A DNA stretch of 64,000 nt from Promethearchaeota archaeon (GCA_019058445.1 JAHPZA010000004.1:64001-128000), one strand, 5' to 3'. Positions 2,027 to 47,336 are shown, counted from the first letter of the stretch. The notes: a model not told the origin generated them from the sequence alone. Translations and numbers: made by a program.

Positions 2027-2986
2027 TTAATATGCGATTAAATCTTCTGGAAATAAAGTTACTGGACGCCATTCAATATTACTCTTCCTTATTATTGATG
2101 GTCGAACAGATTCTATAAAGGTGTACCCTTTCCTACTCCTTACAATATTTATTTTTATATCTAAAGGACCAATAACATTACCTGGAAATAAATTTTGGTA
2201 ATTCATCAGAAAGTTTCGAAGAGCTGCAACTTTAACAGTTGTTTTAATTGGAATCCCGTGATATAGGATTCCAATTTGATTATTAGTACCTGTAATTTTA
2301 CATCCTTCCGATTCGTAGTCCAATTCTACTTGAATATATTTTCGGTCTCGTTCAATAATCTCTAATGTTTTATTACAATAAGGGCATGTTTTTTGATTAA
2401 AATCATCTCTTTGTAAAATCCAATCATAAGTAAATCGGAGTAACATTGCATCACATGATTTACACGCCTTAACTTTCCGGCTGCTTGATAACTTAACTTT
2501 TTTACCAGGAGTCCCTAAAATTAAATCAAGATAATAATGAGTATCATTAATAGGGGTTACTCCGGGCGGGGGTCCACTTGAATGCCCATATCGATGATAA
2601 CTATAATAATTTGATTGGGATTGAGGTTGATATTGAATGGCCTTTTCTTGAGCGAATATTTTTACTGATGAAAAATAGCCAATACCACCGGTCTGAATTA
2701 AATTCATAGTATCCACTAAACCTTCTTTGTAAAGAACAACTTCATTCAAATCTCTGGCTTTCGTTCGATTTTTGGAGTAGGTATGCTCTACTTTAAGGAG
2801 AGGAACGGGTTCCCCTTCACTAGTACAAATTATAGCCTTATAGTAAGCACTCTCCATACTTCGCTCTGAACCAAAAATCTTTAAATATACTTCTGATATA
2901 ATATTTTTATCATTCAGAGGGGATTTATTATCAATAATATGGGAAAGTGGGATGACTTTTTCGTCTATTCCTTTTTTTTTTGCCAT
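2027..2986 (-). CDS. Hypothetical Zn-ribbon protein with C-terminal IEWRP...PED tag
   Basis: CKSC...CPYC pairs; ends IEWRPVTLFPEDLIAY. Likely start is ATG 2986 (MAKKKG), preceded by GGAG; the ORF track extends it to 3100. Confidence 0.75.
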   Translation of the reverse strand: MAKKKGIDEKVIPLSHIIDNKSPLNDKNIISEVYLKIFGSERSMESAYYKAIICTSEGEPVPLLKVEHTYSKNRTKARDLNEVVLYKEGLVDTMNLIQTGGIGYFSSVKIFAQEKAIQYQPQSQSNYYSYHRYGHSSGPPPGVTPINDTHYYLDLILGTPGKKVKLSSSRKVKACKSCDAMLLRFTYDWILQRDDFNQKTCPYCNKTLEIIERDRKYIQVELDYESEGCKITGTNNQIGILYHGIPIKTTVKVAALRNFLMNYQNLFPGNVIGPLDIKINIVRSRKGYTFIESVRPSIIRKSNIEWRPVTLFPEDLIAY

Positions 2987-3274
2987 CTTTTTTATTGCTC
3001 CATATGTTTTGACATTGTTTTTAATTTTAAATCTAACAGATTTAGCTGCTAGGAAGTTCCTATTTTGGAATTGAAAATAAGTATATGAAGTCAATTTCAA
3101 AATTTTTGTCTGATAGCAATATTAGGCTTAACTTTAAAAATCCCTACAAATTCCCTTATTAAAATTTTCTTCTTAAAAAAAACTCTGGATTTATAAATAA
3201 AAAATTGGACATCTTATACAGTAAAAAATTTTTAGGAAAATTTCGATTACTTTAACCTTTTCAAGGTTTTTTAT

Positions 3275-3793
3275 ATGACAAAAATTCAATTTGATGAAAG
3301 ACTAAGTCAATTTCAAAGAGATTTAATGAATGCAATCCAGCATTCAAATTTAGCCCCAAAGATCCATAAAGCTATCAATATGCTTCGCCGTGAAAAGAAT
3401 CTCCTATATATTGAGAAAACAGAAGGAAATCTAAAAGCAGTAGTAAAATCTCAGACAAATCCGAAAAAATTAGAGTATGCCTGCTCAATAAAGGCAGATG
3501 GAACCTTTTTCTGCGGAACTCAGAATCTCCGTCCATGCGGAGGGTTAAGAGGATCAATATGTAAACATATCATATTGACTTTAATAGCAACAGTGAAACA
3601 AGGATATATGCCAAATTACGAGCTTATTGATTGGGTGAAAAAAACCATAAATAATCGTCCCAAATTAAACAAACCAGAAGCAACCTCAATTTTTTTGCAT
3701 TATAAAGATACAATTAATGGAAATTTGAATGCTGTAAATCAAATCGAATGGCGACCAGTAGAGATTCTGCCAGAAGATTTTATGGCTCTATAG
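3275..3793 (+). CDS. SWIM-type zinc-finger protein with C-terminal IEWRP...PED tag
   Basis: VKSQ..Y.C.I....FFC......PC......CKH resembles a variant SWIM finger; ends IEWRPVEILPEDFMAL; first gene of the MoxR/VWA operon. Confidence 0.75.
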   Translation: MTKIQFDERLSQFQRDLMNAIQHSNLAPKIHKAINMLRREKNLLYIEKTEGNLKAVVKSQTNPKKLEYACSIKADGTFFCGTQNLRPCGGLRGSICKHIILTLIATVKQGYMPNYELIDWVKKTINNRPKLNKPEATSIFLHYKDTINGNLNAVNQIEWRPVEILPEDFMAL

Positions 3794-3799
3794 AGGGGA

Positions 3800-4153
3800 T
3801 TGAAAATAGCCACAGAGAAAAGTGATAATAAAATCTTCAATTTATTTGATATTGTTAAAAGTAGGATAAACGAGATATTATTGAAAGGGATTGGCAATAT
3901 TAGTAAGGAAAATTATTCAGAAATAATAGATCTTAGAGATAAAGTGTATAAAATGAATTTAAATCTCATGGGGGATCTATTGGAGCGTTTTGTATCACTT
4001 TTAGGGCAATTAAGTCAAGAAAAGCAGAATCATGAACTTAAAGTTGACGCCTCGATTACTGCCATAAAAATAATATCGACTGCGAGAATGTTTGAAACCG
4101 TTATGAATGTTGAGATTATTAAAACAAATTTACATTCTGGAGGTGATTCTTGA
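3800..4153 (+). CDS. Small helical-bundle protein (YehQ-like helical module)
   Basis: TTG start after GAGGGG; INEILLKGIGNISKEN resembles the N-terminus of the next gene; operonic spacing. Confidence 0.6.
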   Translation: MKIATEKSDNKIFNLFDIVKSRINEILLKGIGNISKENYSEIIDLRDKVYKMNLNLMGDLLERFVSLLGQLSQEKQNHELKVDASITAIKIISTARMFETVMNVEIIKTNLHSGGDS

Positions 4154-4154
4154 G

Positions 4155-5291
4155 ATGACTTCTGTTATATTGAAGAATACGGTAAACCAGATAAAAATTT
4201 TTATAGAAACTATGGTCTACAACGGATTAGACCTCGCAACAAAAGAAAATATTAGACAAATAGAGTTTTTTTTACAAAATTCGTCTCAAGTTGAAACATA
4301 TCGTTTGGCTATATCATTACGCTATTTACATGTTGAAATAAAAAGATTTCTCGAACAAAATCAAGCCTTTAGCATGGAGAGGTATGTGTTTTTTTTGTGT
4401 AATTGTTGGTTATTAAGTAGAGCATTTTTATCTCAAGAACTTGATAATAAAGGTGAAAATAAAGAATTAATGCAAATATTATCAGGAAAGCCTTCCCAGA
4501 AAAAGATACTAAAACCACTTAAGCTAAGAATAGTAGGTCTTGAAAAAGTCTTTTTGGAGGGATCATTATTCGGGATAATTTTATATCTCGTATCTCTTAA
4601 AGCTAAAACAAGATCTTCAATTTTCAAGTGGAGCATAATGCAAACCCCAAAGGGAAAGATCGATCCAGAATCTTTGTTAAGAATGGCGATTTCTGAGAAT
4701 AAAATCAAAATCTTAGACCTACTTTATAAAGAATTTTACGCATTGAATTTAGCTTATTCAGAAGAGGAAATGCTAATCCATGAAATTAAAAAAATACCCC
4801 CTTGCTTTAGTTCTAATGAAAAAGATCCTTTTCCTATTAAAAGGTTAGAAAAATATCATTACAATGTTGAGAATCTATTTAGTCTGATTATGAAAATTCA
4901 ATTGACTCCTTTTGATTTACCAACGAGATTTTTAAGTTATTTATTAATTAAAAATGTAGAGATCGTGGACTTTTTTAAAGAGGTTGATGACGGAAGAAAT
5001 AATAGAATTCCTGTTTATGTCTTTAAAATTTCTCATGATAGCAATTATCCTTTATTTATTAGAATTCAAGAAAAATCCTGTAATCAAGTACTTATTTCCA
5101 ATCTTCAAAATTTTAAAGATAAAAAAGAAAAAATTAAAAATTTGTTTGGGAAATTGTTGATAGAACGAGGACAATTATCAATTTTCCCGTTAAGTGTTTA
5201 TAATGATTCTGAGGTTTTTATTTGCCTTTCTGAAAAATTTCCTAAACCAAGGCAAGAATATAAAGTATTATATAAGAAAGATAAGTCTTAA
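4155..5291 (+). CDS. Hypothetical protein of the MoxR/VWA operon (helical N-terminus, beta-rich C-terminus; YehQ-like)
   Basis: ATG 4155 follows GGAGGTGA (4139-4146); IETMVYNGLDLATKEN helical motif; lies directly upstream of the AAA gene. Confidence 0.6.
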   Translation: MTSVILKNTVNQIKIFIETMVYNGLDLATKENIRQIEFFLQNSSQVETYRLAISLRYLHVEIKRFLEQNQAFSMERYVFFLCNCWLLSRAFLSQELDNKGENKELMQILSGKPSQKKILKPLKLRIVGLEKVFLEGSLFGIILYLVSLKAKTRSSIFKWSIMQTPKGKIDPESLLRMAISENKIKILDLLYKEFYALNLAYSEEEMLIHEIKKIPPCFSSNEKDPFPIKRLEKYHYNVENLFSLIMKIQLTPFDLPTRFLSYLLIKNVEIVDFFKEVDDGRNNRIPVYVFKISHDSNYPLFIRIQEKSCNQVLISNLQNFKDKKEKIKNLFGKLLIERGQLSIFPLSVYNDSEVFICLSEKFPKPRQEYKVLYKKDKS

Positions 5292-5342
5292 TTTTAAACT
5301 TTTAAAAAACAATTTTAAAAAATTAAAGAAATTGAGTGAACT

Positions 5343-6692
5343 ATGGCAAAAAAGAAAGCTCCAGCTAAAAAAATTCCTGTAAAAAAACCACCTCCTAAAA
5401 AGGTGCTACAAAAAAAACCACCAGTTAAATCTGCTCCCGCTAAAAAGGCTGTTCCTAAAAAAGTTCCTCCTAAAAAAAGTCCTGATAAAAAGACTCCTTT
5501 ACAAAAAAATGCTATTAAACCTGAATTAAAATCACCCGAAATATCACTTGGTAAGGATTATGACCCCACAAAGAAGATTAAGAAAAAGATTAGACCTTCT
5601 GTGGAAGTTTTGCATCGTATAGAGTTAATGGCATTAATTCAAAATGATAATTATCCTAAACCCCCAAATTGGCAATTATCTCCCAAGATGATTGAATTAT
5701 TCATCACTGGCTCTCGGGAAAAATTTCCCGTTAAAAAAAATGGAACGACCAAAAAAATTAGTATTTCCACTAAATTTTATGGTGATAAGAACATCGTTCA
5801 AAAAGCAATCGTAACTTTAGCTAGTGAAAGAGCATTAATGCTAATTGGTGAGCCAGGTACTGCTAAATCCTGGCTTTCAGAACACTTAGCCGCTGCTTCA
5901 TGCGGAAGATCTACCTATTTAATCCAAGGTACTGCTGGAACTACTGAAGATCAGATTAGATATTCATGGAATTATGCACTTTTGGTTTCTGAAGGCCCGA
6001 GCTTGAAATCTCTTGTACCTTCACCTACAATAAACGCCATGAGATCTGGAAGAATCTTAAGATTTGAAGAATTAACTCGTTGTCCCCAAGAAATCCAAGA
6101 TAGTATGATTTCAATCCTTTCTGAAAAAGTAATTCCTATACCAGAACTTGGCTCTAAATATTTAATCTATGGGATTCCAGGGTTCAATGTGATTGCCACA
6201 GCAAATGATAGGGATCGTGGTGTGAATGAAATGAGTGCCGCTTTAAAACGTCGGTTTAATTTCATATATATTCCAGTAATCAAGGACAAAGCTTTAGAAA
6301 AAGAGATAGTAGTCAATTGTACCAATGATTTGCTTTCAAGAATTGGTTTTAAAGTACAAATTCCCGAAGATACTTTGGATTTATTAATTACTGTTTTTCA
6401 AGAATTGCGTACGGGTCAGAGTACAACAGGGGGAAGATTTCAACAAATTTCAGGTGTAATGTCGACTTCTGAGGAGATATCACTATTATTTGATAGTGCA
6501 ATTTATGCAAAATTTTTTGGAACCGAAAACATCGAGCCTAAGCATATTGCAATGCAAGTTAAAGATTCTATTGTTAAAGACGATAAAGAAAATCTCTCTA
6601 AACTAAGGGAATATTTTGAATTAGTTGTAAGAAGTAGGGCTTCAAATTCTAAGACATGGAATCAATTTTATACGGCATACAAACTCTTATAA
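5343..6692 (+). CDS. MoxR-family AAA+ ATPase (YehL-like, AAA_5) with Lys/Pro/Ala-rich N-terminal tail
   Basis: Walker A GEPGTAKS, Walker B LRFEELTR, sensor ATANDRDRGVNEMSAALKRRF, YSWNYALL signature. Confidence 0.9.
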   Translation: MAKKKAPAKKIPVKKPPPKKVLQKKPPVKSAPAKKAVPKKVPPKKSPDKKTPLQKNAIKPELKSPEISLGKDYDPTKKIKKKIRPSVEVLHRIELMALIQNDNYPKPPNWQLSPKMIELFITGSREKFPVKKNGTTKKISISTKFYGDKNIVQKAIVTLASERALMLIGEPGTAKSWLSEHLAAASCGRSTYLIQGTAGTTEDQIRYSWNYALLVSEGPSLKSLVPSPTINAMRSGRILRFEELTRCPQEIQDSMISILSEKVIPIPELGSKYLIYGIPGFNVIATANDRDRGVNEMSAALKRRFNFIYIPVIKDKALEKEIVVNCTNDLLSRIGFKVQIPEDTLDLLITVFQELRTGQSTTGGRFQQISGVMSTSEEISLLFDSAIYAKFFGTENIEPKHIAMQVKDSIVKDDKENLSKLREYFELVVRSRASNSKTWNQFYTAYKLL

Positions 6693-6714
6693 TATAATAT
6701 AAGGTGTATTTCCT

Positions 6715-9189
6715 ATATCTAATGATTTCTCCATAAACGTTGGAAACTTGAAAAAGATTCTACATGTTGTATTGGATAAGATTGGTTTAGATTCACAAAA
6801 AGTTGAAAATCAAGTTGCTAAAGTAATGGGAGAAGAAATTAAATATATTCCCATACGGCACAATTCCCCTGGTTCAGCCATATTGGTAAAAAGATGTTTA
6901 GAAGAGTATAAGCCTAAATTAGTGTTAATTGAAGGCCCATATCTGGCCGATGATTTAATTAAATATATAATTGCCCATGACACAATCCCTCCTTTTGCTT
7001 TATTATCTGTGTTTTCAGATGAACAAAATCATTTCAAATTAAATGGAATTATTAGTCCAGATGTTTCAGTACCAGCAAAATTTCAGTTTTACTATCCATT
7101 TATCTCTTATTCTCCTGAATTAGTTGCCTTGAAGTTTTGTTACAGCAAAAATATCATTACACATTTTATTGATTTACCAATCACAGGAATCATTCCTTTT
7201 TTAATAAGAGAAGAGGACAGGTTTCTTCATACTTTAAAGCAGGAAGAAGAACAACTTAAATCTAGCCTATTCTATAAAGAATTGTCACAAATTTTTCAAT
7301 TTGACAGTTTTAACGAAACTTGGGACACATTATTTGAGATTGGTGCTAATAGAGTAGAAATTGACGAGATCCTGGAAAGCTATCTAATTTTTTGTGCTTG
7401 TGTCCGACAATCAATACCAAATATGGCATCAGAACTTAATGGTTCTATTGAAAGAGAAAAATTCATGAAATACAATATAGAACACTATAGAAAAAAGCAT
7501 GGAGTAGATAAAAAGGATGTTATGATAATTACAGGAGGAATTCATTCAGTAGTGTTAGCAGATACAGTACCGCAAAAAATTTCATTTCTAGAAAAAGGTT
7601 TGTTTAATTCTTTAGTTCCTTATTCTTATTATAGAATGAGTGAAGCGTATGGTTATGGTTCTGGTAATCAAGGGCCTCAATTTTATGAGTATATATGGGA
7701 AAATTTCGTTAATGATATTAAATACTCTTTTGAAGCTGCTGCACTGGAGTTAATAACAGATATTTATAGTGATGCAAGAGGAAAAAAATATGATATCTCA
7801 GTTGTTGATTCAATAAATACTTTCCAAAGTGCCAAAATGTTAGCTATGATACGCAGGAGATCCGAGCCATGCCTAAATGATATCGTAGATGCCATTTTTA
7901 TGAGCTTAGTTAAAGGCAATCCCGAAATAGAAGGGGCTTATTTGAAAGAGTTCATTAGAAAAAGAGTTGTAGGATTTAAGTTAGGAAAAATTACAAAATC
8001 AATTAAACAATTACCATTACAAGCAGATTTTTACTTAAGATTTGAATCCTTTAGCATAAATTTAAAAGAGAAATCAAAACGGCATGAATTAAATCTTAGG
8101 GATGAATTTGATAAACAGAAATCTCACCTCTTTTGGAGGGTTAAATATCTCGATCTAGGCATTTTAGAACGAAGTGAAGGGCCAGATTTATTAAAGGGTG
8201 TGTCAGGGGTATTTAAAGAAGTATGGTTTCTTAGTTGGAATCCAAATGTAGATGGAAAATTAATAGAATTGAGTAATTATGGTTCCACTATAGAAGAAGC
8301 AACTAAAAATATGTTAATAGAGGAATCAAAAAAAAATATTAAAGATTTCCAAAAAATTTCTTTTTTATTATATCAAACTTTAGTCATGGGATTACCTACT
8401 TTATTCCCTCATATTGTAATAGTCTGCATTGATTCTTTAGATAAGGATGATAAATTTTTAACTTTATCACGCGGATTTAACAATCTTATCATGATAAGTA
8501 GATTCCTTCACATGATGAAAAATCAAGGGTATAATCTTAATCTCATTACAAAACTAATTTCAAGATGCTACTTCGCATCTTGCTTTTCTCTTCCAATAAT
8601 GGCAAATCCACCGAAAAATCTTGAGGATGCCTTTATAATTGCTGCAAAGGATATGGCTACAACGTTAATTGGGTTATCTACGTTAAAACTTAACATTAAT
8701 GTGTATGAAGAGGGTTTAAAAACTTGTATAGATAACTCTGATAACGATTTTATAAGGGGTGGATGTATAGGAATTCTCTATTTAATGAATTCTATACAAA
8801 TCAAAGATATAAAATATTTAATTCGTGAATACGTAAAAAGTGAAGATTTAATAAAAGTTAGAGTAGGAGAATTTGTTAGAGGTTTAATTTTTATATGTCA
8901 AACGAAGTTATTATATAACAGTGACATAATAAAATTACTTTCTGAAATTATTGAAGATATTGAAACTAAAGTTTTTTTGAGCATTGTTCCATCGCTCAGG
9001 AAAACATTTTCAGAGCTTAGTTTGAGGGAATATGAAGTTTTTGTAGAAAAAATCGCAGAATTATATGGATTAAAAACTTCTAAATTTAAGGAAATTACGG
9101 AAAAAATTGAAAACAAATACTTAATATTCTTTTTTCAAATTAACGAGAAAGTTTATGAAATTTTCAAAAAGTGGTTTGGTGAGGTTTAA
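6715..9189 (+). CDS. DUF5682 / YehM-like protein
   Basis: IRHNSPGSA, VLIEGP, YPFISYSPE, GGIH, LVPYSY.R....GY.SG motifs; lies between the MoxR and VWA genes. Start is uncertain (ATA 6715 after GGTG, or TTG 6748). Confidence 0.85.
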   Translation: MSNDFSINVGNLKKILHVVLDKIGLDSQKVENQVAKVMGEEIKYIPIRHNSPGSAILVKRCLEEYKPKLVLIEGPYLADDLIKYIIAHDTIPPFALLSVFSDEQNHFKLNGIISPDVSVPAKFQFYYPFISYSPELVALKFCYSKNIITHFIDLPITGIIPFLIREEDRFLHTLKQEEEQLKSSLFYKELSQIFQFDSFNETWDTLFEIGANRVEIDEILESYLIFCACVRQSIPNMASELNGSIEREKFMKYNIEHYRKKHGVDKKDVMIITGGIHSVVLADTVPQKISFLEKGLFNSLVPYSYYRMSEAYGYGSGNQGPQFYEYIWENFVNDIKYSFEAAALELITDIYSDARGKKYDISVVDSINTFQSAKMLAMIRRRSEPCLNDIVDAIFMSLVKGNPEIEGAYLKEFIRKRVVGFKLGKITKSIKQLPLQADFYLRFESFSINLKEKSKRHELNLRDEFDKQKSHLFWRVKYLDLGILERSEGPDLLKGVSGVFKEVWFLSWNPNVDGKLIELSNYGSTIEEATKNMLIEESKKNIKDFQKISFLLYQTLVMGLPTLFPHIVIVCIDSLDKDDKFLTLSRGFNNLIMISRFLHMMKNQGYNLNLITKLISRCYFASCFSLPIMANPPKNLEDAFIIAAKDMATTLIGLSTLKLNINVYEEGLKTCIDNSDNDFIRGGCIGILYLMNSIQIKDIKYLIREYVKSEDLIKVRVGEFVRGLIFICQTKLLYNSDIIKLLSEIIEDIETKVFLSIVPSLRKTFSELSLREYEVFVEKIAELYGLKTSKFKEITEKIENKYLIFFFQINEKVYEIFKKWFGEV

Positions 9190-9193
9190 AGTC

Positions 9194-10636
9194 ATGAATC
9201 TTGACAATAAGCCAAGTAATAGATCATTTCAGAATTCCGAAATTTATAAAAATCTAACAGAACGACAAAAACTGTCATTGACAAGATGGAGATTAATTCT
9301 TGGAAAAAAGGCTGAAGAACAGGGGATTAGTAATATTGCAGGTAACCAATTTTCAGGCAATAATGGCCCCAAGAAGAGTAATAACAAACCAAAAGGGGCG
9401 CCAAAGCAAAATAAAAACGCTACAGGAGGTATGGGGACAAATTCAAATATACCAAGTCCTAAAGGTTCCAATACTCAGGGACAAGCGAGAGGGAAAAGTA
9501 GTTTCAAAAAAATAAGAGTTAAAACTCCTAGCAAGCAGAATCATGGAAGAAGCAGTTCTAAATCAAGTAGTCCTGGGGGAACACAACCTTCTACAGGCCA
9601 CCAAACCATGAAAGCTGAATTTAACGATATTGATAACACATTAGATTTAGTTTATAATACATCTCAAGAAAAGCGTGGAGCTAATTTAGGATCTAGTGGG
9701 CTATCTATTCCAAAATGGATAGAAAATGTTAAAACTTTATTTCCAAATAAAGCTAAAGAAGTCCTTGAAAATGATTTAGTAAAGAAATCAAAAATTGCAG
9801 ATCTAATAAAACATCCAGAACTTTTCGAAAAAGTTGAGCCAAATCTCGAGATGGTTAAAACCATTCTTTCTTTAAAAAATATGCTTTCACCGAGGGTTAA
9901 GGATGCGGCTCGAAGAGTAGTAAAAAAAGTCGTAGATCAGATTAAAAATCATTTAAAATCTGAAGTGGAAAAACATATTGTTGGAGCCATTAAACGCGAT
10001 TCTCATACTCCAATAAAAGTATTTAGAAATATTGATTGGAAACAAAGCATCATGCGTAATTTAAAACATTATGATTCTAAAACTCATAAATTAATAATGG
10101 CCGAACCAAGATTTTTCACTAATGAAAAACGACGTAAGGCATGGCAAATTATTGTATTAGTTGACGAAAGTGGTTCAATGGCAAACTCAGTCATCTATTC
10201 AGTAATCATGGCCTCCATATTTTCAAGTTTACCAGCGGTTCATACAAATTTAGTTATATTTGATACTCAAGTCGTAGATTTATCGAAAAAAATTGATGAT
10301 CCAGTTGATATCCTTATGTCGGTACAACTTGGAGGGGGAACCGATATTACGAAAGCAGTGAGATATGGACAAAGTCTAATTAAAAAACCAAAAAAAGCAA
10401 TAATGGTTATTATTAGTGATTTCTACGAAGGAAGACCGGTACACGATCTAATGAGAGCATTAAAGCAAATTCTAGAAGGAGGGACTAAAATTTTGGGAAT
10501 AGCATCTTTAGCATCAAACGCAAAACCTTTTTATAATAAACCGCTAGCAAAAGAAATTAGTCATTTAGGGATTGATGTAATAGCATCAACACCAGAAAGT
10601 TTTCCTGAAATTTTGGTCCGTTTAATGAATTCTTAA
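9194..10636 (+). CDS. VWA (CoxE/YehP-like) domain protein
   Basis: RWRLILG N-terminal motif, MIDAS DESGS, GGGTDI, ISDFYEG; ATG 9194 follows GAGGT; long G/S/N/K-rich insertion. Confidence 0.9.
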   Translation: MNLDNKPSNRSFQNSEIYKNLTERQKLSLTRWRLILGKKAEEQGISNIAGNQFSGNNGPKKSNNKPKGAPKQNKNATGGMGTNSNIPSPKGSNTQGQARGKSSFKKIRVKTPSKQNHGRSSSKSSSPGGTQPSTGHQTMKAEFNDIDNTLDLVYNTSQEKRGANLGSSGLSIPKWIENVKTLFPNKAKEVLENDLVKKSKIADLIKHPELFEKVEPNLEMVKTILSLKNMLSPRVKDAARRVVKKVVDQIKNHLKSEVEKHIVGAIKRDSHTPIKVFRNIDWKQSIMRNLKHYDSKTHKLIMAEPRFFTNEKRRKAWQIIVLVDESGSMANSVIYSVIMASIFSSLPAVHTNLVIFDTQVVDLSKKIDDPVDILMSVQLGGGTDITKAVRYGQSLIKKPKKAIMVIISDFYEGRPVHDLMRALKQILEGGTKILGIASLASNAKPFYNKPLAKEISHLGIDVIASTPESFPEILVRLMNS

Positions 10637-10637
10637 A

Positions 10638-12800
10638 TTACGCAAAATCTTTAATTAAACGCACGTAATTTTTTTCCTTCTTTAAATAACCCAAATTACA
10701 TGCATGATTAAAATGAGTATAAAATTTTTTATCTACAATATCCTCTATGCGTGCAAGAGCCCGAAATTTTGAAAATTCCATTTGTCCATTTTCACTATAT
10801 TTAGCGATATTGATTAATGTTTTAAGATTCTTGTTTAAATAAACCTTGTGCTTTTTAGAAACCTCATTTTTCTTGCCTCTCATTTTAAGAATATTATGTC
10901 GCATTCGTGGTTGTTCTATTCTACAAATATCAGAATAAAAGGTAACTCCGAAATCTTTTAATTTCTTAAATTCAGGGGATTTGGAAAAATTATCAATCTG
11001 AGAGATAATTTCTTCAATTGAGCGATCAGCTAGAAGTTCTTTTTCTTCATTCCTTCTTTCTTTGAACTTTCTTATAAGATCTAACTCAGATTGGCATTCT
11101 TTGGATGGAGATATATTAATATTTTTACGATTTAAACCTTTAGATAATTCTAGTTGATTAGCTTCTGTTAAGATGTATTTCATCTCATTTTCCTTTCTAA
11201 AAGATACTATATGAAACGGAACGTCAACAGTTCTAGAAGCCATCAAAATATAACATCTTCCATTACAGAATCTCCCAGTTCTTCCTCGCCTTTGAATTAA
11301 CCTAATTTCTGATGGTACTGGTTCATAAAAAATTATTGCATCAACATTTGGGATATCTAGTCCTTCTTCAGCAACACTGGTGGCTATTAAAATATTAATA
11401 TTATTCTTTCTAAATTCGTTTAGGATCTTAATTTGTTCATTTTGAGAATAGCCAAAATCATCAACTTTCGTTGATTGTCCTATGAATTTTTCGATTGCAT
11501 GTTGTTCGGAGTCAGAAAACCCATCTATTAATTGATTTTTTAATAATTCTGCTGTTTTCCTATATTGGGTAAAAATTATTATCTTTTTATTATTAAATAA
11601 TTCTAATTCCTCTTTAATTATTGATTTTAGTTTATTAATTTTAGGGTGATGTAAATTTGAGTATTCTTTTTTCTTGAATAATGAATTTATAAACTTAAAA
11701 TGCTTTGAATTGGTAATTCTTTTAGCAGATAAAATATCCTGCCCTGCTTTATAAGAAAGTCTTTCTAAAAATGATCGAAAGAGGGAAATATCCTGTGTTT
11801 CTAATAAATCTTTAGCATGAAGTATTGAAATACAACTAGAGCTATAGGAAAAAATAGATTGAATATTCAATTTGTTCTCTTTTACAAGATCAATTATTCT
11901 AGGTGATTGAAAAAATAACTGTTCACCAAATTCCTCATCGAATATGTCCGTGTTGTAAAATTTCTCATATTTTAAGGAAAGGGTTAGATCATGACAAATC
12001 CTTAGAAAATCTATTTTTGAGTAATACTTTTTATAAGGATTAATCAAACTTCTTTCAATAAAAAATCTTAAAAACTTTTTTAATAAATTATCCCAAACTC
12101 CACTAATTTCAAGATAATTTATGGGTAAGTCCACTTTTTCTATAAATGTATCAATATCATAAATATAACGTTTTACATCTTCATCTTCTTGTGATTTGAA
12201 TACAATTTCTTCGATGTATAAGTTATCACAGAGCTGCTGAATGCGAAGCAAATCTTTTCCGGGAGATGCGGTCAAACCCAAAATTAATGGATCTCTACAA
12301 GTGTTAATATACTCTTTTGAAATGAAATTATACGCATAATTGCCTCTGGTTCTATGAGCTTCATCAAAAATTATCAATGCAACTTGACTTAAATCGTATC
12401 TTCCTCTCATTAAATCATTTTTTATTACTTGTGGTGTAGATATAATGATTTTTGAGTTATTAAAAGCAATGATTCTTTTTTCAGGAGAGATTTTTCCAGT
12501 TAATATTGAAATGTTGGATTCATCTACATCTAAAAATTGTTCACAAGACGCTTTATGTTGCGCAACTAAAGGTCTAGTAGGGGCTAAGATTATTGTTTTT
12601 GCTTTACCATTATACTTTTCAAGGGCATTAGCTATTAATAAAATTCCGATTATTGTCTTTCCTAGTCCTGTAGGTAAAACAACTAAACTATTTTTAGCTT
12701 TACATTTTTTTACGATATTCTCTTGATAAAGTCGGTAATGTATGGTATTTTTTTTTAAGAAATTTCCATTAAAATAGTCCGGAGTTTTGTAGAGATTCAT
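10638..12800 (-). CDS. hef: Hef/FANCM/Mph1-like SF2 DNA helicase (no recognisable ERCC4 nuclease domain)
   Basis: LPTGLGKT, DEAH, GLTASPG, ATSVAEEGLDIP, QRRGRTGR. Confidence 0.85.
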   Translation of the reverse strand: MNLYKTPDYFNGNFLKKNTIHYRLYQENIVKKCKAKNSLVVLPTGLGKTIIGILLIANALEKYNGKAKTIILAPTRPLVAQHKASCEQFLDVDESNISILTGKISPEKRIIAFNNSKIIISTPQVIKNDLMRGRYDLSQVALIIFDEAHRTRGNYAYNFISKEYINTCRDPLILGLTASPGKDLLRIQQLCDNLYIEEIVFKSQEDEDVKRYIYDIDTFIEKVDLPINYLEISGVWDNLLKKFLRFFIERSLINPYKKYYSKIDFLRICHDLTLSLKYEKFYNTDIFDEEFGEQLFFQSPRIIDLVKENKLNIQSIFSYSSSCISILHAKDLLETQDISLFRSFLERLSYKAGQDILSAKRITNSKHFKFINSLFKKKEYSNLHHPKINKLKSIIKEELELFNNKKIIIFTQYRKTAELLKNQLIDGFSDSEQHAIEKFIGQSTKVDDFGYSQNEQIKILNEFRKNNINILIATSVAEEGLDIPNVDAIIFYEPVPSEIRLIQRRGRTGRFCNGRCYILMASRTVDVPFHIVSFRKENEMKYILTEANQLELSKGLNRKNINISPSKECQSELDLIRKFKERRNEEKELLADRSIEEIISQIDNFSKSPEFKKLKDFGVTFYSDICRIEQPRMRHNILKMRGKKNEVSKKHKVYLNKNLKTLINIAKYSENGQMEFSKFRALARIEDIVDKKFYTHFNHACNLGYLKKEKNYVRLIKDFA

Positions 12801-38862: not shown

Positions 38863-38947
38863 TATTATATTTCTATATTATTAAATTGAAAAAAATTTAC
38901 CAACTATTTCTAAACAAATAATTTATCTTTTCCAAAGAATATGGATA

Positions 38948-39123: not shown

Positions 39124-40107
39124 TTATTTCAGATACTCATCAACCCATCTTATAATCTCCTTGCTTTCTTCATCAGGTTTTACTATAGGAATACCATGCC
39201 CACAGTGCATTCGTACATACTTCCAGCTGCCTTTTACAAGTGATTTAACGCGAGCTACCTCCTCATCACTTATAGCACCCAAAAGTCGTCCCTCATACAT
39301 AAACCAATTTGCATGCAAAAATAGTATTGGTTGTGCAACCTTAGCAAGAGTTTCTGCGTGATCGAAATCTTTACCTACCGATCCATCCAAAAATGCCTTT
39401 GTGAAAGTAAAATCGAACTGTGAATTACCTTTCAGAAGAATACGTCTTTCTGGAGGCAAGAACTTTAAATCTACCGGACTATTTGGTCGGAAGAACAGTT
39501 TTATTGCAATTATTTTTGAAATGAAATTTATTATAAACTTAGGAGGTAATTTTATATTCAATACTTCTTTTGCTATACTTCCCATTAGGGTGATACTTTC
39601 CTTGAAATATTTCGGGAGGCCACCGCCACCTGGAGTTCCCATGATTTCTACAAGCATCGTAAAGACATCGTAAACCCACGTGGTTTTTATGGTCGGCCAT
39701 TCACAGAGAAAGAGCGGGGGATCTTCGCAGATCACTCCTTTCACCCATTCTGGTGAATTTGCCGCTAGCCAAACTGATAATACACCTCCTGAAGAATTAC
39801 CCCCCACTATAGCAGGCCTTCCTACAACTTCACGCAAGAAAGCAGTCATATCCTTCCCCAATATATTAAAAGTATATTTTCCCGGAGTAAATGTAGATTT
39901 GCCATGCCCACGCAGAGTTACAGCAAAGACTTGGAAGCGATGTGCAAGCTTTGGAAGAAGTAGCATATATTCTTCCCAGGTAACACCTTGTCCGGGAATA
40001 AAGACTAAAGGTGTCCCGTTGGGCGGGCCAGCTACATAATTTAATTTAATTTCACCAGTGTCAAAAAATCCCTCCTCTATTCCTGCTTTTTTTAATATTT
40101 TATTCAT
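39124..40107 (-). CDS. Alpha/beta hydrolase
   Basis: LRGHGKS, nucleophile elbow GNSSGG, EDPP, C-terminal GH. Confidence 0.9.
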   Translation of the reverse strand: MNKILKKAGIEEGFFDTGEIKLNYVAGPPNGTPLVFIPGQGVTWEEYMLLLPKLAHRFQVFAVTLRGHGKSTFTPGKYTFNILGKDMTAFLREVVGRPAIVGGNSSGGVLSVWLAANSPEWVKGVICEDPPLFLCEWPTIKTTWVYDVFTMLVEIMGTPGGGGLPKYFKESITLMGSIAKEVLNIKLPPKFIINFISKIIAIKLFFRPNSPVDLKFLPPERRILLKGNSQFDFTFTKAFLDGSVGKDFDHAETLAKVAQPILFLHANWFMYEGRLLGAISDEEVARVKSLVKGSWKYVRMHCGHGIPIVKPDEESKEIIRWVDEYLK

Positions 40108-40213
40108 TATTTTCCTTTCTCTGAGTATAATAAATTATTTCTATATAATTTACTCATTCTGAAAAAATATTGAAGATTATATAAAGATTGTTTTAATTAC
40201 TAATTTTAAGACA

Positions 40214-41470: not shown

Positions 41471-41607
41471 TTTTTACACCCAATTTATTTTATATTATAA
41501 GTATAAAATTATTGATAAAATTTAATTTTGGACCTGTTAAATACAATTTTCTTCTGATGATTTGTAGTATACTATTGAATTAATAAAGAATATTAATCAA
41601 AAAATTC

Positions 41608-41635
41608 ATGGATTCAAATCCCACTTCTCCCATTT
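41608..41635 (+). repeat. tRNA-Pro 3' remnant 4 (most degenerate)
   Basis: ATGGATTCAAATCCCACTTCTCCCATTT; 22/28 identical to 34836-34863. Confidence 0.65.
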
Positions 41636-41686
41636 AAGAATTATGGAATTACAATAGAAAAATTCACTTTTTTAAAACATATTAAA

Positions 41687-42937
41687 CTAATTTTCTGTAT
41701 TATATTCATCCACAGCTTCCAACGCTGCGATAATATTCTCAGGAGGGACATCAGGTAATATATTGTGGATAGCATTCCATACATAACCACCTCCAGGAGC
41801 AAAAATTTCAAGTAATTCTTTGACATGTTTTTTAACTTGCTCGGGTGATTTCCGATTGAGAATATTACGAGTGTCCGCTCCGCCTCCCCAAAAAGTAATC
41901 TCATCCCCAAAAGTTTCTTTTAGATATTTTGGATCCATACCTTTTGCGCTAATTTGAATAGGGTTTAGGATATCTATTCCACATTCTATAAAATCCGGAA
42001 TTAATTTCACGACTGATCCGCAAGAATGAAAAAATATCTTCATTGAACTGTGTTTTTTTATATATTGACATAATTCTTCATTTCCTCGTTTGAAAAATTT
42101 TCGGTACGTTTCAGGATTGATTATTGGCCCATTATTTTCGCCAAAGTCATCACCAAGAGTAATTATATCCACAACATCTCCCACATATTTACATATAACT
42201 TTAAGAGCATTAATAAAAAATTCAATTTGAAGATCAACGAGTTTTTCTATTTTAGATGGTTTTTGTTTAATATCGAGGACAGTTTTGTCCATCCCCCTAA
42301 TACCATGAATGCCCTCGAAAACCCCTGCTCCAAAATGCAAGATGACTGCTTTTTGAGTTTTTTCACGTAGTTGGATAGCATTATCTCTTAATTTACGCCA
42401 AAATCTCTTCTCTCCCATATTGCTAAAGGGTGGAATCATACATTGTGATCCAACATTATTATCGAATGCATTTAATAATGATTGGAAGTTTAAATTCTCG
42501 GGATACCCCTCACCAAATGGATAATAAGTCTGGTGTATGTATAACGTGTCTTTAGACATGTTCCCTAATATTGTTCCATCAGAATGAATAACTTCGATAG
42601 AATCATCGGGGTTGTGTCTGGGTTGAAAATAAGTAGGGAATTGTGCCTTAATGCCATGCAGTTTAACATCGTACCAATCTTTATCTTCTGTAAGATAAGC
42701 GGAACCTAAATCAATCACATCAATTCCAAAACGTTCGATAAACCAATCCTCAACGCGAGCTAATTGTTGTATGAGGTCATATATTCGAACATTTCCTTCT
42801 TTGATATTTAAATAGTTTTTTAAATTATAGTAGGCTATTGCCGAAATCCCAGTGATTGGAGTAGATCCAATATCTACTGGAACGCGATCTGGTTCCTTAT
42901 GATTAATAGCGGTCAATACACGCTCTCTAGAATAAAT
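41687..42937 (-). CDS. Uroporphyrinogen decarboxylase / MtaA-CmuA methyltransferase family protein (copy 2)
   Basis: Same motifs as copy 1; N-terminus (I)YSRERVLTAINHKEPDRVP from ATT 42937. Confidence 0.88.
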   Translation of the reverse strand: MYSRERVLTAINHKEPDRVPVDIGSTPITGISAIAYYNLKNYLNIKEGNVRIYDLIQQLARVEDWFIERFGIDVIDLGSAYLTEDKDWYDVKLHGIKAQFPTYFQPRHNPDDSIEVIHSDGTILGNMSKDTLYIHQTYYPFGEGYPENLNFQSLLNAFDNNVGSQCMIPPFSNMGEKRFWRKLRDNAIQLREKTQKAVILHFGAGVFEGIHGIRGMDKTVLDIKQKPSKIEKLVDLQIEFFINALKVICKYVGDVVDIITLGDDFGENNGPIINPETYRKFFKRGNEELCQYIKKHSSMKIFFHSCGSVVKLIPDFIECGIDILNPIQISAKGMDPKYLKETFGDEITFWGGGADTRNILNRKSPEQVKKHVKELLEIFAPGGGYVWNAIHNILPDVPPENIIAALEAVDEYNTEN

Positions 42938-43133
42938 CTTTCCATCACTATATCGAATTCATCTAATCTGTTACTAATTAAGTATTATATATCATTTCTA
43001 AACTCTTACATAAAACAGAGGGGAATGTCGTAGGACTATAAATTACTTTTCTCGCAGTATCTAGGTTTTTTTTACTGACGGTTTTCATTAACTACCCAAA
43101 TGATATTAAAATCAAACTAGGAGGTTATTAACA

Positions 43134-43343
43134 ATTAGTCAAATAGAACTTATACAAGATGATGAGTGGGCAAATGATTGGAATACGATTGTGGAATTAT
43201 TTGATGTGATTAACAAGTTGAAAGAATTATTTTCTCGATTAGATGTTCCGTATCTCCGAGAAGTAGAGCAGAGAATCTTGAAATTACATCTGGAAAAATA
43301 TGTATGTTCTCTTCAAAATTATATCATTGAGAAGTATTCTTAA
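43134..43343 (+). CDS. Small helical protein missed by the ORF track (69 aa, ATT start)
   Basis: GGAGGT at 43120-43125, then ATT 43134; (M)SQIELIQDDEWANDWNTIVELFDVINKLKELFSRLDVPYLREVEQRILKLHLEKYVCSLQNYIIEKYS; fills an otherwise empty gap. Confidence 0.7.
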   Translation: MSQIELIQDDEWANDWNTIVELFDVINKLKELFSRLDVPYLREVEQRILKLHLEKYVCSLQNYIIEKYS

Positions 43344-43457
43344 GCGTTGTGCAAAATCATTTGTTTTATATTAGTAGCATTGAACTCATAAAGAGAAAAT
43401 AATAATTTTTAAAAGAGTTTAGCACTATCTAGAAACTAATAATTAAATTTAATTATC

Positions 43458-44177
43458 GTGATAATTTTGAATCTATTTCTTTTCTGGACTTATATATTAA
43501 CTATCTTAATACTTATTATAGTTATTTTAGTTATTATCCTTGCTTGGAGGGCTTATTTTCCAAGAAAATGGTTATACCTTCTTATATTTTCATTTACGGC
43601 TATAATCGGGGGTCTTATAATACTACTCATAGCAGAGCTAGAAGCACCTTATAATTCAAATTTTTATATTAATCCTTTCTTATACTTAATTTATTTTGGG
43701 TTAACAGGATGTTCAATGTTTACTATTTATCTTTTAGTCCTTGAAATTCACTTCAAACACCTTAAAATATTATTGGTTATGGGCCGCATTTTATTCGTGA
43801 TAATACTCGTTTTCCTTATCCTTAGTTTAATTCTTATGTTATTAATTGAATTTTTAAGGTATCCATGGATAGCGTATATAGTATTTGAAGTCGTTTACGT
43901 GCTTGGTATTATAGCTTATTTTTTGTTGGCTGTTGGAAGCTTTTCACATGTAACATCTGACCGTTTAGAGCAAGATGTGCGTCGTGGATTGACATTGGTT
44001 GGAATATTTAGCTTGGGATTTGCGTTTGGTCTTACTATATTAGCAATGGATATATTATATGTGGATTTTTCCATTGCGCTTCATCCTTCGGTATCTATTT
44101 TTTGGTTATTGTGGATTAGTATTGTATCTATTATCTTTTTATTAATGGTTCGGCGAGCAATTATCTTAATTACATAA
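43458..44177 (+). CDS. Polytopic (about 7 TM) membrane protein
   Basis: Seven hydrophobic segments. Confidence 0.7.
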   Translation: MIILNLFLFWTYILTILILIIVILVIILAWRAYFPRKWLYLLIFSFTAIIGGLIILLIAELEAPYNSNFYINPFLYLIYFGLTGCSMFTIYLLVLEIHFKHLKILLVMGRILFVIILVFLILSLILMLLIEFLRYPWIAYIVFEVVYVLGIIAYFLLAVGSFSHVTSDRLEQDVRRGLTLVGIFSLGFAFGLTILAMDILYVDFSIALHPSVSIFWLLWISIVSIIFLLMVRRAIILIT

Positions 44178-44234
44178 TAAAGTCTACTTTTAACCATCTA
44201 TTACTTTTTTATTTGAAAATTAGCTTATCACTAT

Positions 44235-45311
44235 CTAAAAGCATTTATTCGGGGCATCAGGATTATAGAAGCATTTTGGATCAGAGGCAGTGATATCTCC
44301 TAAAAAGATATGTGCATTTGCCCGGCATCCATAACACACAAGTTTAGAAACGCAAGTTGCACAAGGTCCTTTTACATTAAATTTAAGCAAGAGATTTTTT
44401 TTCGATCTTTTAATAATTTTAAGAATATCTTCTTCGTATATATTTCCTTCTGATAAATCAGGAAGAAGTAAGCATGGTACCACACTTCCATCAGCAAGAA
44501 CTGCTAAGTGAGACTGACAAGCATATTTGCCATCTGAGCATCCTACTAGCAGCATGTGCTTTCCCTCAACGTCCGCTCTATGGCGAAATGCTTTTTCTAT
44601 CTGTGTTAAAGTAGGTTCCCATACAGAACCCTCATTTTTTGCTAGGCCTAGAGGTCTAAAAACTGCTATGGCAACATGCTTAGCACCTTTAGAATAAAAC
44701 CAATCCATAAGCTCATTTATAGATTCCGCATTTTGACTTGTTAGAGTCGGGCATCCATATATTCGATCCGGGGGAAATCCCTCATCTAGGAGTGCTTGGT
44801 ACCCCTCAATCTTAGATTTTAATGAGTACGGCAAGCTGTTTACTTGGTTATAGATCTCTTGATTAAGACTATCTATATGCATTCCAAGAATGAATTCCTG
44901 ACCATTTGCTTTAGCTAATTCACTAGCCTCTACTAACCACTTAGCCTTTTGATTTGAAATCAACCCAGCGAGTGGCATATACATATGAAAACCTTCTTGA
45001 ATACCGTAAAAAACCATGTCTTTACATTTAGGATGAATAAGTTGATCTCCACCATAGAGATAAACGACTTGCACTCCAAGTTTTTTTATTTCAAGAATTT
45101 CTTGGAATTTTTCGAAAGATAAATTATCATTCGGAAGGGTTTCAGCATCTAAGGAACTAGCATAACAATACATGCAACCACCAGCACACCTTTGATTTAT
45201 TTCTATATTTACACAAACCGGATTTCCCTTATTATAAACTTTAACAAACTCTTTTCTGGTAAAAAGGTCTAATGGGGGATTTTCTCTAGATCCATGTTTT
45301 TTCTTAAACAA
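44235..45311 (-). CDS. Radical SAM protein with SPASM domain
   Basis: CAGGCMYC; C-terminal C...G.V.PC...GN...CATC...CYGCRA...DP.C. Confidence 0.92.
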   Translation of the reverse strand: MFKKKHGSRENPPLDLFTRKEFVKVYNKGNPVCVNIEINQRCAGGCMYCYASSLDAETLPNDNLSFEKFQEILEIKKLGVQVVYLYGGDQLIHPKCKDMVFYGIQEGFHMYMPLAGLISNQKAKWLVEASELAKANGQEFILGMHIDSLNQEIYNQVNSLPYSLKSKIEGYQALLDEGFPPDRIYGCPTLTSQNAESINELMDWFYSKGAKHVAIAVFRPLGLAKNEGSVWEPTLTQIEKAFRHRADVEGKHMLLVGCSDGKYACQSHLAVLADGSVVPCLLLPDLSEGNIYEEDILKIIKRSKKNLLLKFNVKGPCATCVSKLVCYGCRANAHIFLGDITASDPKCFYNPDAPNKCF

Positions 45312-45338
45312 AAATAACTCATCTCTGGTTTTAAAAAT

Positions 45339-46778
45339 TCAAAAAGGTTTATCAGGTTTTGACAATTCATCCTCATAGTCTTCGAAAAACCAGTTAATCT
45401 CATTTTGAAAGAAAAATCTTTCTCTCAAAACATCATAATGCGATTTTCCTCTTAGACTAGTTAATTTTGCAATATCTTCAGAAAGGATTTTATCTTCATT
45501 CACTAAATCCATTCGGCATTTAAATTGATCAACCATCTTTATTGGTCTTAGAATTATGTTAATTGCATTTGAGATCTTTCTCATTATTTTTTGAAATTCC
45601 ATTTTATTAATATATTGTATTTCTTGATTTTCAACGAAAAAATCGTTAACTTGCTTTAATATTTCAGCCATTTTATAATAATTTATAGTTTCTTCGGGAT
45701 TTAGAACTTCAGATAAATAATTAATAATTTTTTTAATAATCCTTGGTTCAATACTTTTTTTTGTCATGCCTTTGTCTAATTTTGCTAAAAATTGTGTTTT
45801 TAGAAATTCTTTATATTTTATTATAATTGCACGGTTTTCTCTTCGATCACTACATACTTCTACTATTTCTCCTCGAGGAGTAGAATAGGTAAAACCATGA
45901 CCTTGAGGTCCAAGCCCCCCTAACAATACCATTGATAAGCTGTAGTAATTATAGTGATTTTTATAGTCCAATATTTTATTATAATTTTTTAAAATATTAC
46001 TTATTGAGACTAGATGCGTTTTTCTTCCAAATTCAAATTGAATTAATTTCATTTCGTTCTTCTGGGGATCATTTTTTATCGGTGAATAATGTTTTTCAAA
46101 GCATTTTATAAAATCTTCAATATTTCCTAATTTTTGCACACTGAGACCATATATTGAGTACCTATCGAAAAATATTTTTAAAGAACTCAAATTATATTCA
46201 GTTCTGAATAAATACTCCTCATCAGTAAAAGTTGATGAATTATTGAGATAAATCAAATAAAGATCATATGGCATTATCTTACATGAATACCATATTAGTG
46301 CATCTGAAACTTTACCAAACAGATCTTTTAGATTTGCAATGAGCGCCTTATCATTTTGTCTGATATAGTTTATTAAATCCGATTCATTTTCAGTAAACTC
46401 CCGATCAAATAAGTTAAATTCATTAAATAATCTAATTATCTCAAAAATATTTCCTATTTGACCATATTGTATACCAGAGAGATGTAAATCAGAAATAATT
46501 TTAAATCGGTTTGGAATTCTTTTTACATCAATAAAAATTTCTAATTTATCACTTAATTTGAATAATTTCCTGAATTTTTCAAATTTTCTCGAAGCTAAAA
46601 AATTAGAGAGCGCAAAATAATAATTTTTTTCAATCTGTTCTTTAAATTTATCAAACATCATTGAGGAGAACCGTGAACTTGGATCTTCTTGGATAAAACG
46701 TTCAAAAAAGTCGCTGATTTTAAATGATTCATTTGATCTCAATGATTCAACGATCTCTAAAAATTGTTCTGAAAGCAT
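45339..46778 (-). CDS. Hypothetical protein
   Basis: 479-aa ORF with a conserved-looking block MVLLGGLGPQGHGFTYSTPRGEIVEVCSD. Confidence 0.75.
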   Translation of the reverse strand: MLSEQFLEIVESLRSNESFKISDFFERFIQEDPSSRFSSMMFDKFKEQIEKNYYFALSNFLASRKFEKFRKLFKLSDKLEIFIDVKRIPNRFKIISDLHLSGIQYGQIGNIFEIIRLFNEFNLFDREFTENESDLINYIRQNDKALIANLKDLFGKVSDALIWYSCKIMPYDLYLIYLNNSSTFTDEEYLFRTEYNLSSLKIFFDRYSIYGLSVQKLGNIEDFIKCFEKHYSPIKNDPQKNEMKLIQFEFGRKTHLVSISNILKNYNKILDYKNHYNYYSLSMVLLGGLGPQGHGFTYSTPRGEIVEVCSDRRENRAIIIKYKEFLKTQFLAKLDKGMTKKSIEPRIIKKIINYLSEVLNPEETINYYKMAEILKQVNDFFVENQEIQYINKMEFQKIMRKISNAINIILRPIKMVDQFKCRMDLVNEDKILSEDIAKLTSLRGKSHYDVLRERFFFQNEINWFFEDYEDELSKPDKPF

Positions 46779-46922
46779 AATTAGACAATATTATATATAC
46801 AAGTATTATAATATAACTATTTCTAATAAAAATAAAGTGGTTTAGGATGTTCTTTAAGATTTTATTTAGACTCCTTTATAATTTTTTAATCGCATAAGAA
46901 TTCTATTATAATGATTACTCTT

Positions 46923-47336
46923 TTAGTATGCCATAGAATCTTCAGGATAAAATACTGCTGGACGCCATTCAATTGGAGTAGAATAGGTGTGAATTGTAAT
47001 ATCTGCACGTTCTGGTTGGAATCTATACTTCCTTCTAGCTCGAGATGTAGATTTTCTCGAACTAGGAATATAACAGCCTAAAAGGCATGTAAGATCGTAG
47101 GTATCGTTTATTAAAGCATCAAAAAACGGCTTATTTCTGGTTTTTGGTAAGTATCCTAATTTATGATTTTGATGCCAAACACTCACAGCATACCTATCAT
47201 ATTTATTGTTAGGTTCAGGTTGCAGTTCTAGTATAGTTTTGAGGGGTAATTTAAATATATATTTACCATTACCAGTATAATAAATACCCACGATTTGAAG
47301 ATGATAATCTTGATTATACTCTAATTTATCGACCAT
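46923..47336 (-). CDS. HIRAN-domain protein with C-terminal IEWRP...PED tag
   Basis: IVGIYY, LELQPEPNNKYDRYAVSV...KLGYLPK (HIRAN signature); ends IEWRPAVFYPEDSMAY. Confidence 0.85.
   Translation of the reverse strand: MVDKLEYNQDYHLQIVGIYYTGNGKYIFKLPLKTILELQPEPNNKYDRYAVSVWHQNHKLGYLPKTRNKPFFDALINDTYDLTCLLGCYIPSSRKSTSRARRKYRFQPERADITIHTYSTPIEWRPAVFYPEDSMAY

Follow-up and report, generated by a model that had tools for sequence, protein, structure and literature searches.

A C-terminal tail shared by unrelated proteins of an Asgard order as a probable docking peptide for a YehL-type MoxR/DUF5682/VWA system

A 64-kb stretch of DNA from a Promethearchaeota archaeon (GCA_019058445.1; contig C4:64001-128000 of a 4.6 Mb assembly), called the window here and counted from its first letter, encodes three non-homologous proteins which share one C-terminal ending of 16 residues, IEWRPxxxxPEDxxA[YL]-stop (the tag). 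Two of them, a zinc-ribbon protein and a SWIM-like zinc-finger protein, are encoded at the head of an operon for a MoxR-class AAA+ ATPase, a DUF5682 protein, a VWA_CoxE protein and two further conserved subunits, p117 and p394; the third is a stand-alone HIRAN protein encoded elsewhere in the window. This tail is probably a short flexible C-terminal docking peptide, which attaches interchangeable proteins to the p117/p394/MoxR/DUF5682/VWA machine, a YehL-type MoxR system. Its carriers would be adaptors or clients bringing the ATPase machine to DNA ends, single-stranded DNA (ssDNA) or other targets, and its receptor would read the residues W-R-P and P-E-D as well as the free carboxylate. As the socket, p394 with p117 would be the likeliest candidate; the MIDAS (metal ion-dependent adhesion site) of the VWA protein, the DUF5682 alpha-solenoid and the MoxR pore would be alternative sockets.

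In translation, the C-terminal tails of the three open reading frames (ORFs) read IEWRPVTLFPEDLIAY (2027-2140, minus strand), IEWRPVEILPEDFMAL (3683-3793, plus strand) and IEWRPAVFYPEDSMAY (46923-47033, minus strand), each followed directly by the stop codon. Nine of the 16 tag residues are identical among the three proteins and synonymous codons vary (CGT/CGA, CCA/CCT), so that a DNA repeat as the origin of the tag was rejected. When the last 18 residues were cut, the three carriers formed separate BLAST clusters at E<1e-3, with no similarity outside the tail. The sequence-only reading, which had claimed a common motif at identical distance from the stop of unrelated proteins and conservation at the protein level, was borne out in these respects. 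A six-frame scan of the genome (56,465 stop-to-stop frames) for C-terminal [IV][ED]WRPx4PEDx2A[YLF] or looser forms returned only these three proteins. The SWIM-like protein (172 aa; 3275..3793, plus strand; tag at 3743-3790) is the product of the first gene of the operon. The zinc-ribbon carrier (2027..2986, minus strand; tag at 2030-2077, stop at 2027-2029) has an ORF open to 3100, and its start is most likely the ATG at 2986, because the resulting 319 aa equal the size of its orthologues, which comprise 317-319 aa and likewise carry the tag next to this operon (L045, L193, L214). As a lead only, features from a protein atlas liken it to OB folds of the RPA type that have a zinc ribbon. The HIRAN carrier (137 aa; 46923..47336, minus strand; tag at 46926-46973) is the only one of the three with a family match in Pfam (PF08797, 36.4 bits versus a cut-off of 24.7), and its gene lies away from the operon, at a distance of about 36 kb to the last gene there and of 43 kb to the SWIM gene.

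Beyond the window, the DNA pattern of EWRPx4PED gave 29 matches, spread over 21 of the 400 genomes of the phylum, which all belong to one Asgard order, and the reversed control pattern gave none. A stop codon followed exactly four codons after PED in 29 of 29 matches, though the pattern required no stop. These matches were pre-selected by the pattern, and therefore a profile of the SWIM module without its last 20 residues was used as an unbiased test. With 494 representatives at E<=1e-3 among 1.84 billion representative proteins, the SWIM-module family is rare, and among the best 150 of the 494 the protein end was [DE]W[RK]Px4PEDx4 in 144, while five of the six exceptions keep the motif with one residue more, one fewer or one substitution. 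Therefore, the residues W, R, P, P, E and D and their spacing to the carboxyl end are truly conserved, P-E-D being invariant in this unbiased sample. The general motif is [ILV]-[ED]-W-R-P-x4-P-E-D-x2-A-[FYLM]-COOH, in which the penultimate residue is Ala in 62/70 Asgard and 102/117 bacterial tags. Known terminal signals were compared and rejected: the HbYX motif of proteasome activators, as most tags carry Ala and not Tyr at the penultimate position; the PIP box Qxx[LIMV]xx[FY][FY], as Gln is missing from the required position and Asgard tags lack a terminal aromatic pair; and an archaeosortase-type sorting signal, as there is no transmembrane segment. Two GC-rich bacterial ORFs ending ...WRPGHRQPEDQRDP (L105) and ...WRPETRRPEDRSGE (L244) were set aside as chance matches.

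The SWIM-like protein has the ligands C80, C88, C96 and H98, invariant across 37 homologues and spaced C-x7-C-x7-C-x-H. It found no Pfam match at E<=0.01 (SWIM being PF04434, CxCxnCxH), and the module profile aligned weakly to both SWIM fingers of Escherichia coli YehQ (E 2e-4 when two sequences were searched). AlphaFold2 folds residues 8-148 confidently, with a predicted local distance difference test (pLDDT) of about 90, into a pair of helices, a sheet of four strands, the zinc site and a further three helices; a Foldseek search of this model against the PDB yielded nothing at E<=0.001, ZSWIM8 appearing only at rank 10 with a TM of 0.36. Tail residues 151-172, at a pLDDT of 42-51, make no packing contact with the domain, and in the window protein six residues are inserted directly in front of the tag. 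The tail thus probably is a disordered segment after a folded domain, and as modelled it behaves as a short linear motif awaiting a partner; its fixed distance to the C-terminus suggests that the free carboxylate itself is read by the receptor.

The zinc-ribbon gene and the SWIM-like gene are divergent and separated by a 288-bp AT-rich spacer. Located 3' of the latter and tightly packed on the plus strand are the genes for p117 (3800..4153), p394 (4155..5291), the MoxR-class ATPase (5343..6692; Pfam AAA_5, 122 bits, E 2.5e-35), the DUF5682 protein of 813 aa (6748..9189; PF18934, 278 bits, E 2e-82) and the VWA_CoxE protein with an intact MIDAS (9155..10636; 144 bits, E 5.7e-42). Coordinates and Pfam assignments hence agree with the earlier claim of two divergent tag genes at the head of a MoxR-DUF5682-VWA operon. 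The likely start of p394 is the ATG at 4155, one base past the p117 stop and preceded by GGAGGTGA, in an ORF open from 4107. The small subunit p117 is present in Asgard and bacterial operons and p394 is conserved in all tag-type operons; no match of p117 was found in Pfam, NCBIfam or PADLOC, p394 and DUF5682 have no sequence relative in the PDB, and the NCBIfam scan of the core proteins gave sub-threshold matches only. PADLOC had no match for any core subunit, so a role in defence is not supported.

In a scan of one genome per prokaryotic species at least 120 loci were found, of which, among those listed, most are bacterial and belong to Planctomycetota/Gemmataceae, Myxococcota, Obscuribacterales and, in a few cases, Proteobacteria; cultivable bacteria with such loci include Archangium violaceum Cb vi76, Paraliomyxa miuraensis and Gemmata. 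Asgard archaea and dozens of bacterial loci share the order SWIM(tag)-p117-p394-MoxR-DUF5682-VWA, in which p117 has an ORF of its own in Planctomycetota and forms the N-terminal part of a p394-like protein in Myxococcota. The bacterial consensus is EAGE[IV]DWRPTET[IV]PED[FY]YA[LMFY]-stop and almost always forms the end of a SWIM-like module of ~140 residues; among the bacterial loci listed, 122/~128 tag carriers are the operon's own SWIM proteins, and the matches listed hold only three non-SWIM carrier families (L062/L168 and L134). The module is preceded by nothing or by long pentapeptide-repeat regions, sometimes with BRCT; pentapeptide repeats are a known DNA-mimic fold. Two to three tandem SWIM-tag paralogues of 350-940 aa with different N-termini often accompany one machine (L063, L074, L081, L089, L091, L112, L116, L122, L158). 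Six components hence make up the conserved unit, and the bacterial tail is a constant feature of its SWIM subunit. The idea of a free-standing portable tag consequently holds almost only for one Asgard order, while in bacteria it gives way to the tail of a 140-aa SWIM module.

In that order, the tail of 16-18 residues is found on at least ten unrelated protein families, which do not cluster with the tag removed. Carriers comprise HIRAN alone or behind one to three Ssb-like OB folds (Pfam HIRAN 34-45 bits outside the window), the zinc-ribbon family, some members of which have TPR repeats, a protein of the uracil-DNA-glycosylase (UDG) superfamily, a protein with a Cdc6 AAA+ lid domain, an LRR protein, a Ras-family GTPase, a winged-helix (wHTH) protein and several proteins without an assigned family; a scan of metagenomes added more non-SWIM carriers of the same kinds. 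Approximately 14 of ~44 distinct non-SWIM carriers are encoded <=1 kb from the VWA or SWIM gene, usually <=50 bp after VWA. The HIRAN-tag gene directly follows the VWA gene in seven loci (L053, L054, L059, L197, L224, L234, L239) and replaces the SWIM gene at the operon head in another (L057), and in genome G144 it occupies the SWIM position beside a 72-aa SWIM remnant. The earlier proposal that clients or sensors encoded in trans plug into the machine is supported by trans-encoded carriers, whose genes cluster beside the operon, and its hint at the sensing of DNA ends or forks by the DNA-end and ssDNA theme of HIRAN, OB folds, UDG, Cdc6-like proteins, BRCT and pentapeptide repeats. One carrier on a metagenome contig is a Ras-family small GTPase (L245:1572-2177; Pfam Ras, E 1.4e-42) encoded 837 bp upstream of a SWIM-tag operon, which means that carriers are not all DNA-binding proteins. 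Directly downstream of the HIRAN-tag gene of the window lies a gene for a 479-aa protein without a Pfam family (45339-46778, minus strand), a pair conserved in genome G174 and on two metagenome contigs as well (L044, L191, L215); two genes from the HIRAN-tag gene, a radical SAM/SPASM-domain protein is encoded (44235-45311, minus strand), which is probably unrelated.

Gene order and joint occurrence support the general idea of an address that is portable and linked to the MoxR/DUF5682/VWA machine. Synteny was observed in at least about 100 bacterial and archaeal loci, and among 154 genomes of the window's order tag and DUF5682 were both present in 13, the tag only in nine, DUF5682 only in three and neither in 129 (Fisher p about 9e-11, a value which is overstated, the genomes being related and not independent). 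One of the three DUF5682-only genomes has a contig which begins at p117, with the SWIM gene cut off, and the other two (G274, G282) carry a tagless variant of the operon.

This tagless variant (L048:4632-12919 and L049:3-6844) bears on the putative socket. Its MoxR, DUF5682 and VWA genes are followed by a gene for a protein of 532-538 aa, which has a CxC...CxH finger at ~83-100 and matches the p394 profile with residues 151-500, and then by a gene for a protein of 591-602 aa with a p117-like N-terminal domain (E 2.7e-11). The likeness of p394 to the fused SWIM protein amounts to E 3e-18 in hmmsearch and to a probability of 96.8% (E 2.9e-10, 338 columns) in hhalign. None of seven archaeal proteins from tagless operons in which a SWIM finger is fused to a p394-like part ends in the tag; the p394-like part takes the position of the missing tail. 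Because the tail is missing where SWIM and p394 form one chain and terminates the SWIM module where they are separate, p394, together with p117, may be taken as the first receptor candidate, at least as likely as a mechanism by MIDAS and pore. A word-index search for fused p394 found none among longer proteins, and the matches of similar length were only close relatives. The fused proteins possess a conserved ending of their own, ...EFHLNLExAxxL.., which might be another terminal motif.

Several findings weigh against the docking of the tail to this machine. The chief one is that the nine tag-only assemblies lacked both DUF5682 and p394 in searches which did match the control genome G178, and five of them are 95-99% complete. 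They touch on what the sequence-only reading had itself named as speaking against it, a tag common in genomes without the MoxR/VWA locus. However, these assemblies are metagenome-assembled genomes (MAGs), and accessory islands are frequently missing from metagenome bins; the two most deviant tags belong to them, and one of their tags is on a gene fragment of 71 aa. Yet the machine may be absent for real. The fragment, a zinc-ribbon-family piece with an intact tag (G218, L037:4809-5024) in a genome in which DUF5682 and p394 were not found, could be what is left of a decaying gene once the machine had been lost. Furthermore, the SWIM-tag gene is not at the operon head in three genomes of one genus (G182, G178, G208). 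In G182 (L033:2342-10049) and G178 (L038:10013-18147) it adjoins herA-nurA-mre11-rad50-like genes, neighbours named from their N-terminal sequences only, the rest of the operon of G178 being placed on another contig which starts at p117; in G208 (L036:782-1294) the contig begins just before the gene and that side is out of view. E. coli YehLMPQ has no tag at all, and YehQ (614 aa, two SWIM fingers) neither carries one nor matches the p394 profile significantly (E 0.1-0.3), for which reason the Rosetta-stone argument draws on the archaeal fused proteins only. Similarity of p394 between bacteria and archaea (E 1e-8 to 1e-15) is far below that of the tail, MoxR, DUF5682 and VWA, and a weakly conserved protein as the receptor of a near-invariant peptide would be odd. 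Finally, no modelled contact between tail and subunit was obtained in the one prediction made, in which the 40-residue tail combined with p394, p117 and VWA 165-493 scored 0.24, 0.49 and 0.01 (mark 0.32), results that count neither way.

The known system closest to that of the window in its genes is E. coli yehL-yehM-yehP-yehQ, which likewise unites an AAA_5 MoxR protein, DUF5682, VWA_CoxE with MIDAS and a SWIM protein in one operon; the DUF5682 family accordingly also matched the E. coli control genome. It differs in that the SWIM-like protein of the window has 172 aa and comes first in the operon, unlike the long SWIM protein YehQ after the VWA gene, and in that p117 and p394 are separate genes. 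The YehQ-like fused SWIM form is present in other genomes of the window's order, and no DUF4132 (YehI-like) gene adjoins the window operon. For the mode of working, the closest comparison is CbbQ-CbbO, also a MoxR AAA+/VWA machine, whose client needs a MIDAS-bound acidic residue and a C-terminal motif at a critical distance from the terminus, and whose ATPase is stimulated by the Rubisco C-terminal peptide alone (PMC4660213). Its motif is that of Rubisco, the only client, and lacks portability, whereas the tag of the window occurs on many unrelated proteins; moreover, the window system has DUF5682, p117 and p394 as extra subunits. The ternary vWA-MoxR-VMAP conflict systems resemble it in the combination of MoxR and vWA with variable partners and in a patchy distribution (Kaur et al. 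2020, PMC7159879). Membership in these was not supported, as Pfam detected no VMAP or effector domains and PADLOC assigned no family to the core genes. In the acidic stretch and the hydrophobic or aromatic end, the tag recalls the SSB tail -DDDIPF, which belongs to the portable C-terminal peptides together with PTS1 -SKL, read by PEX5 TPR, the Hsp70/90 ending -EEVD, read by TPR clamps, and HbYX. Such address peptides are short, disordered and at a fixed distance to the end, and sit on unrelated carriers that share one receptor; the tag sequence fits no consensus of PTS1, EEVD, HbYX or the SSB tail. No published description of the tail or of a function of the operon was found: papers mentioning DUF5682 or studying yehLMPQ were not found, yeh gene names appeared only in passing in genome papers, and the papers found on MoxR with SWIM and vWA concerned unrelated systems.

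The DUF5682 model (pLDDT 86.6) shows an N-terminal domain that may be TraB/ChaN-like, helices in the middle and an alpha-solenoid at the C-terminal end. Residues 16-277 were aligned by VIA-align to 8bqs_DQ (Z 9.8), HopBA1 (5t09, Z 8.0) and ChaN (2g5g, Z 7.5), middling scores for a domain which was not folded alone, and residues 460-813 to repeat proteins; with Foldseek no PDB entry matched at E<=0.001. The invariant residues R37, H38, E62, E124, D142 and H266 suggest that the modelled N-terminal domain holds an active site like that of a hydrolase, and residues 327-408 are similar to the lid bundle of AAA+ proteins. At its N-terminus the MoxR ATPase has ~60 Lys/Pro/Ala-rich residues resembling histone H1 (window 5343-5600), with weak matches to Pfam HC2 and to histone-H1-like NCBIfam models, and the N-terminal region of the VWA protein is long, basic and of low complexity; from their composition, both basic N-termini could bind DNA. 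A 720-aa DEAD/ResIII superfamily-2 helicase gene (window 10638-12800, minus strand) converges on the end of the VWA gene, and so it does in G174 (L046).

Other explanations of the common ending are to be weighed against a docking peptide. The chance that it arose by coincidence, or that homologous domains simply have it as part of their normal structure, is negligible: the reversed control pattern had 0 matches versus 29, each match sits at the exact terminal position, the carriers have no similarity outside the tail and the tail is unstructured in the AlphaFold2 model, so that we count this explanation as already refuted by the control, terminal-position and clustering results. Rather improbable, though to be taken seriously, is the mechanism put forward by the sequence-only reading, according to which the acid of PED would coordinate the metal of the VWA MIDAS as its sixth ligand and the last residue, hydrophobic or aromatic, would engage the MoxR pore, as in CbbQ-CbbO with Rubisco. 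The MIDAS signature DxSxS...T...D is complete, D337, S339, S341, T396 and D422 being invariant in 23 homologues, P-E-D is as constant in the unbiased sample, the VWA protein is conserved between bacteria and archaea as strongly as the tail, and an acidic residue plus a position-sensitive C-terminal motif is what CbbQO reads (PMC4660213). However, the VWA protein is intact in the tagless variants and in E. coli, where no tag exists, so that the MIDAS must have another ligand there, and the SWIM-p394 fusion points to a different partner.

That the tag is a substrate or degron signal, with the carriers as clients remodelled by MoxR or processed by the TraB/TIKI-like domain of DUF5682, we hold to be unlikely. 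AAA+ machines do commonly choose substrates by C-terminal tags, ssrA with ClpX being an example, and the DUF5682 N-terminal domain, apart from its resemblance to ChaN, HopBA1 and TraB-type folds (VIA Z 7.5-9.8), has invariant His, Glu and Asp residues. Still, the fold match is middling and the catalytic role only predicted; we know of no MoxR ATPase acting as a processive unfoldase; and the SWIM-tag protein, as the stoichiometric and always-present first gene product of the operon, fused to p394 in variants, fits a subunit better. Less credible again, and quite improbable, is that the tail binds a cellular hub outside the operon, such as Mre11-Rad50, RPA or a clamp, with the SWIM-tag subunit as one of several recruits. 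The nine assemblies with a tag and without the machine, the SWIM-tag gene near herA-nurA-mre11-rad50 in G182 and G178 and the prevalence of DNA-metabolism proteins among carriers are in its favour. Conversely, a hub motif should be widespread, and the bacterial tag is nearly confined to operon SWIM proteins (122/~128 among the loci listed); the tail fits neither the PIP-box nor the HbYX consensus, and the assemblies in question are MAGs, which often miss accessory islands.

With docking to the p117/p394/MoxR/DUF5682/VWA machine as the preferred reading, the tail matters in several respects. The YehL-type MoxR/DUF5682/VWA system is widespread, E. coli included, and without known function; as a probable C-terminal docking peptide for an AAA+ machine, the tail makes this unexplained system experimentally approachable, since a terminal peptide at a fixed position which marks the machine's proteins is a bait for pull-downs and binding assays. 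It also yields a list of probable adaptors or clients, which points to DNA ends, ssDNA and damage, and newly defines two conserved subunits without a family, p117 and p394. Moreover, it is a natural case of a short linear motif copied among unrelated proteins of Asgard archaea; of all prokaryotes these are the closest to eukaryotes, in which wiring by such motifs is the rule. It is conceivable, if doubtful, that the Asgard tail is a general address label, similar in its logic to PTS1 or other short linear motifs of eukaryotic style, which can be grafted on any protein and routes a varying set of DNA-end, ssDNA, lesion, origin and signalling proteins (HIRAN/OB, UDG, Cdc6-like, Ras, LRR) to a single MoxR/VWA/TraB-like machine for remodelling or processing. 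If true, the Yeh-type system would be a DNA-associated hub of protein remodelling with plug-in sensors.

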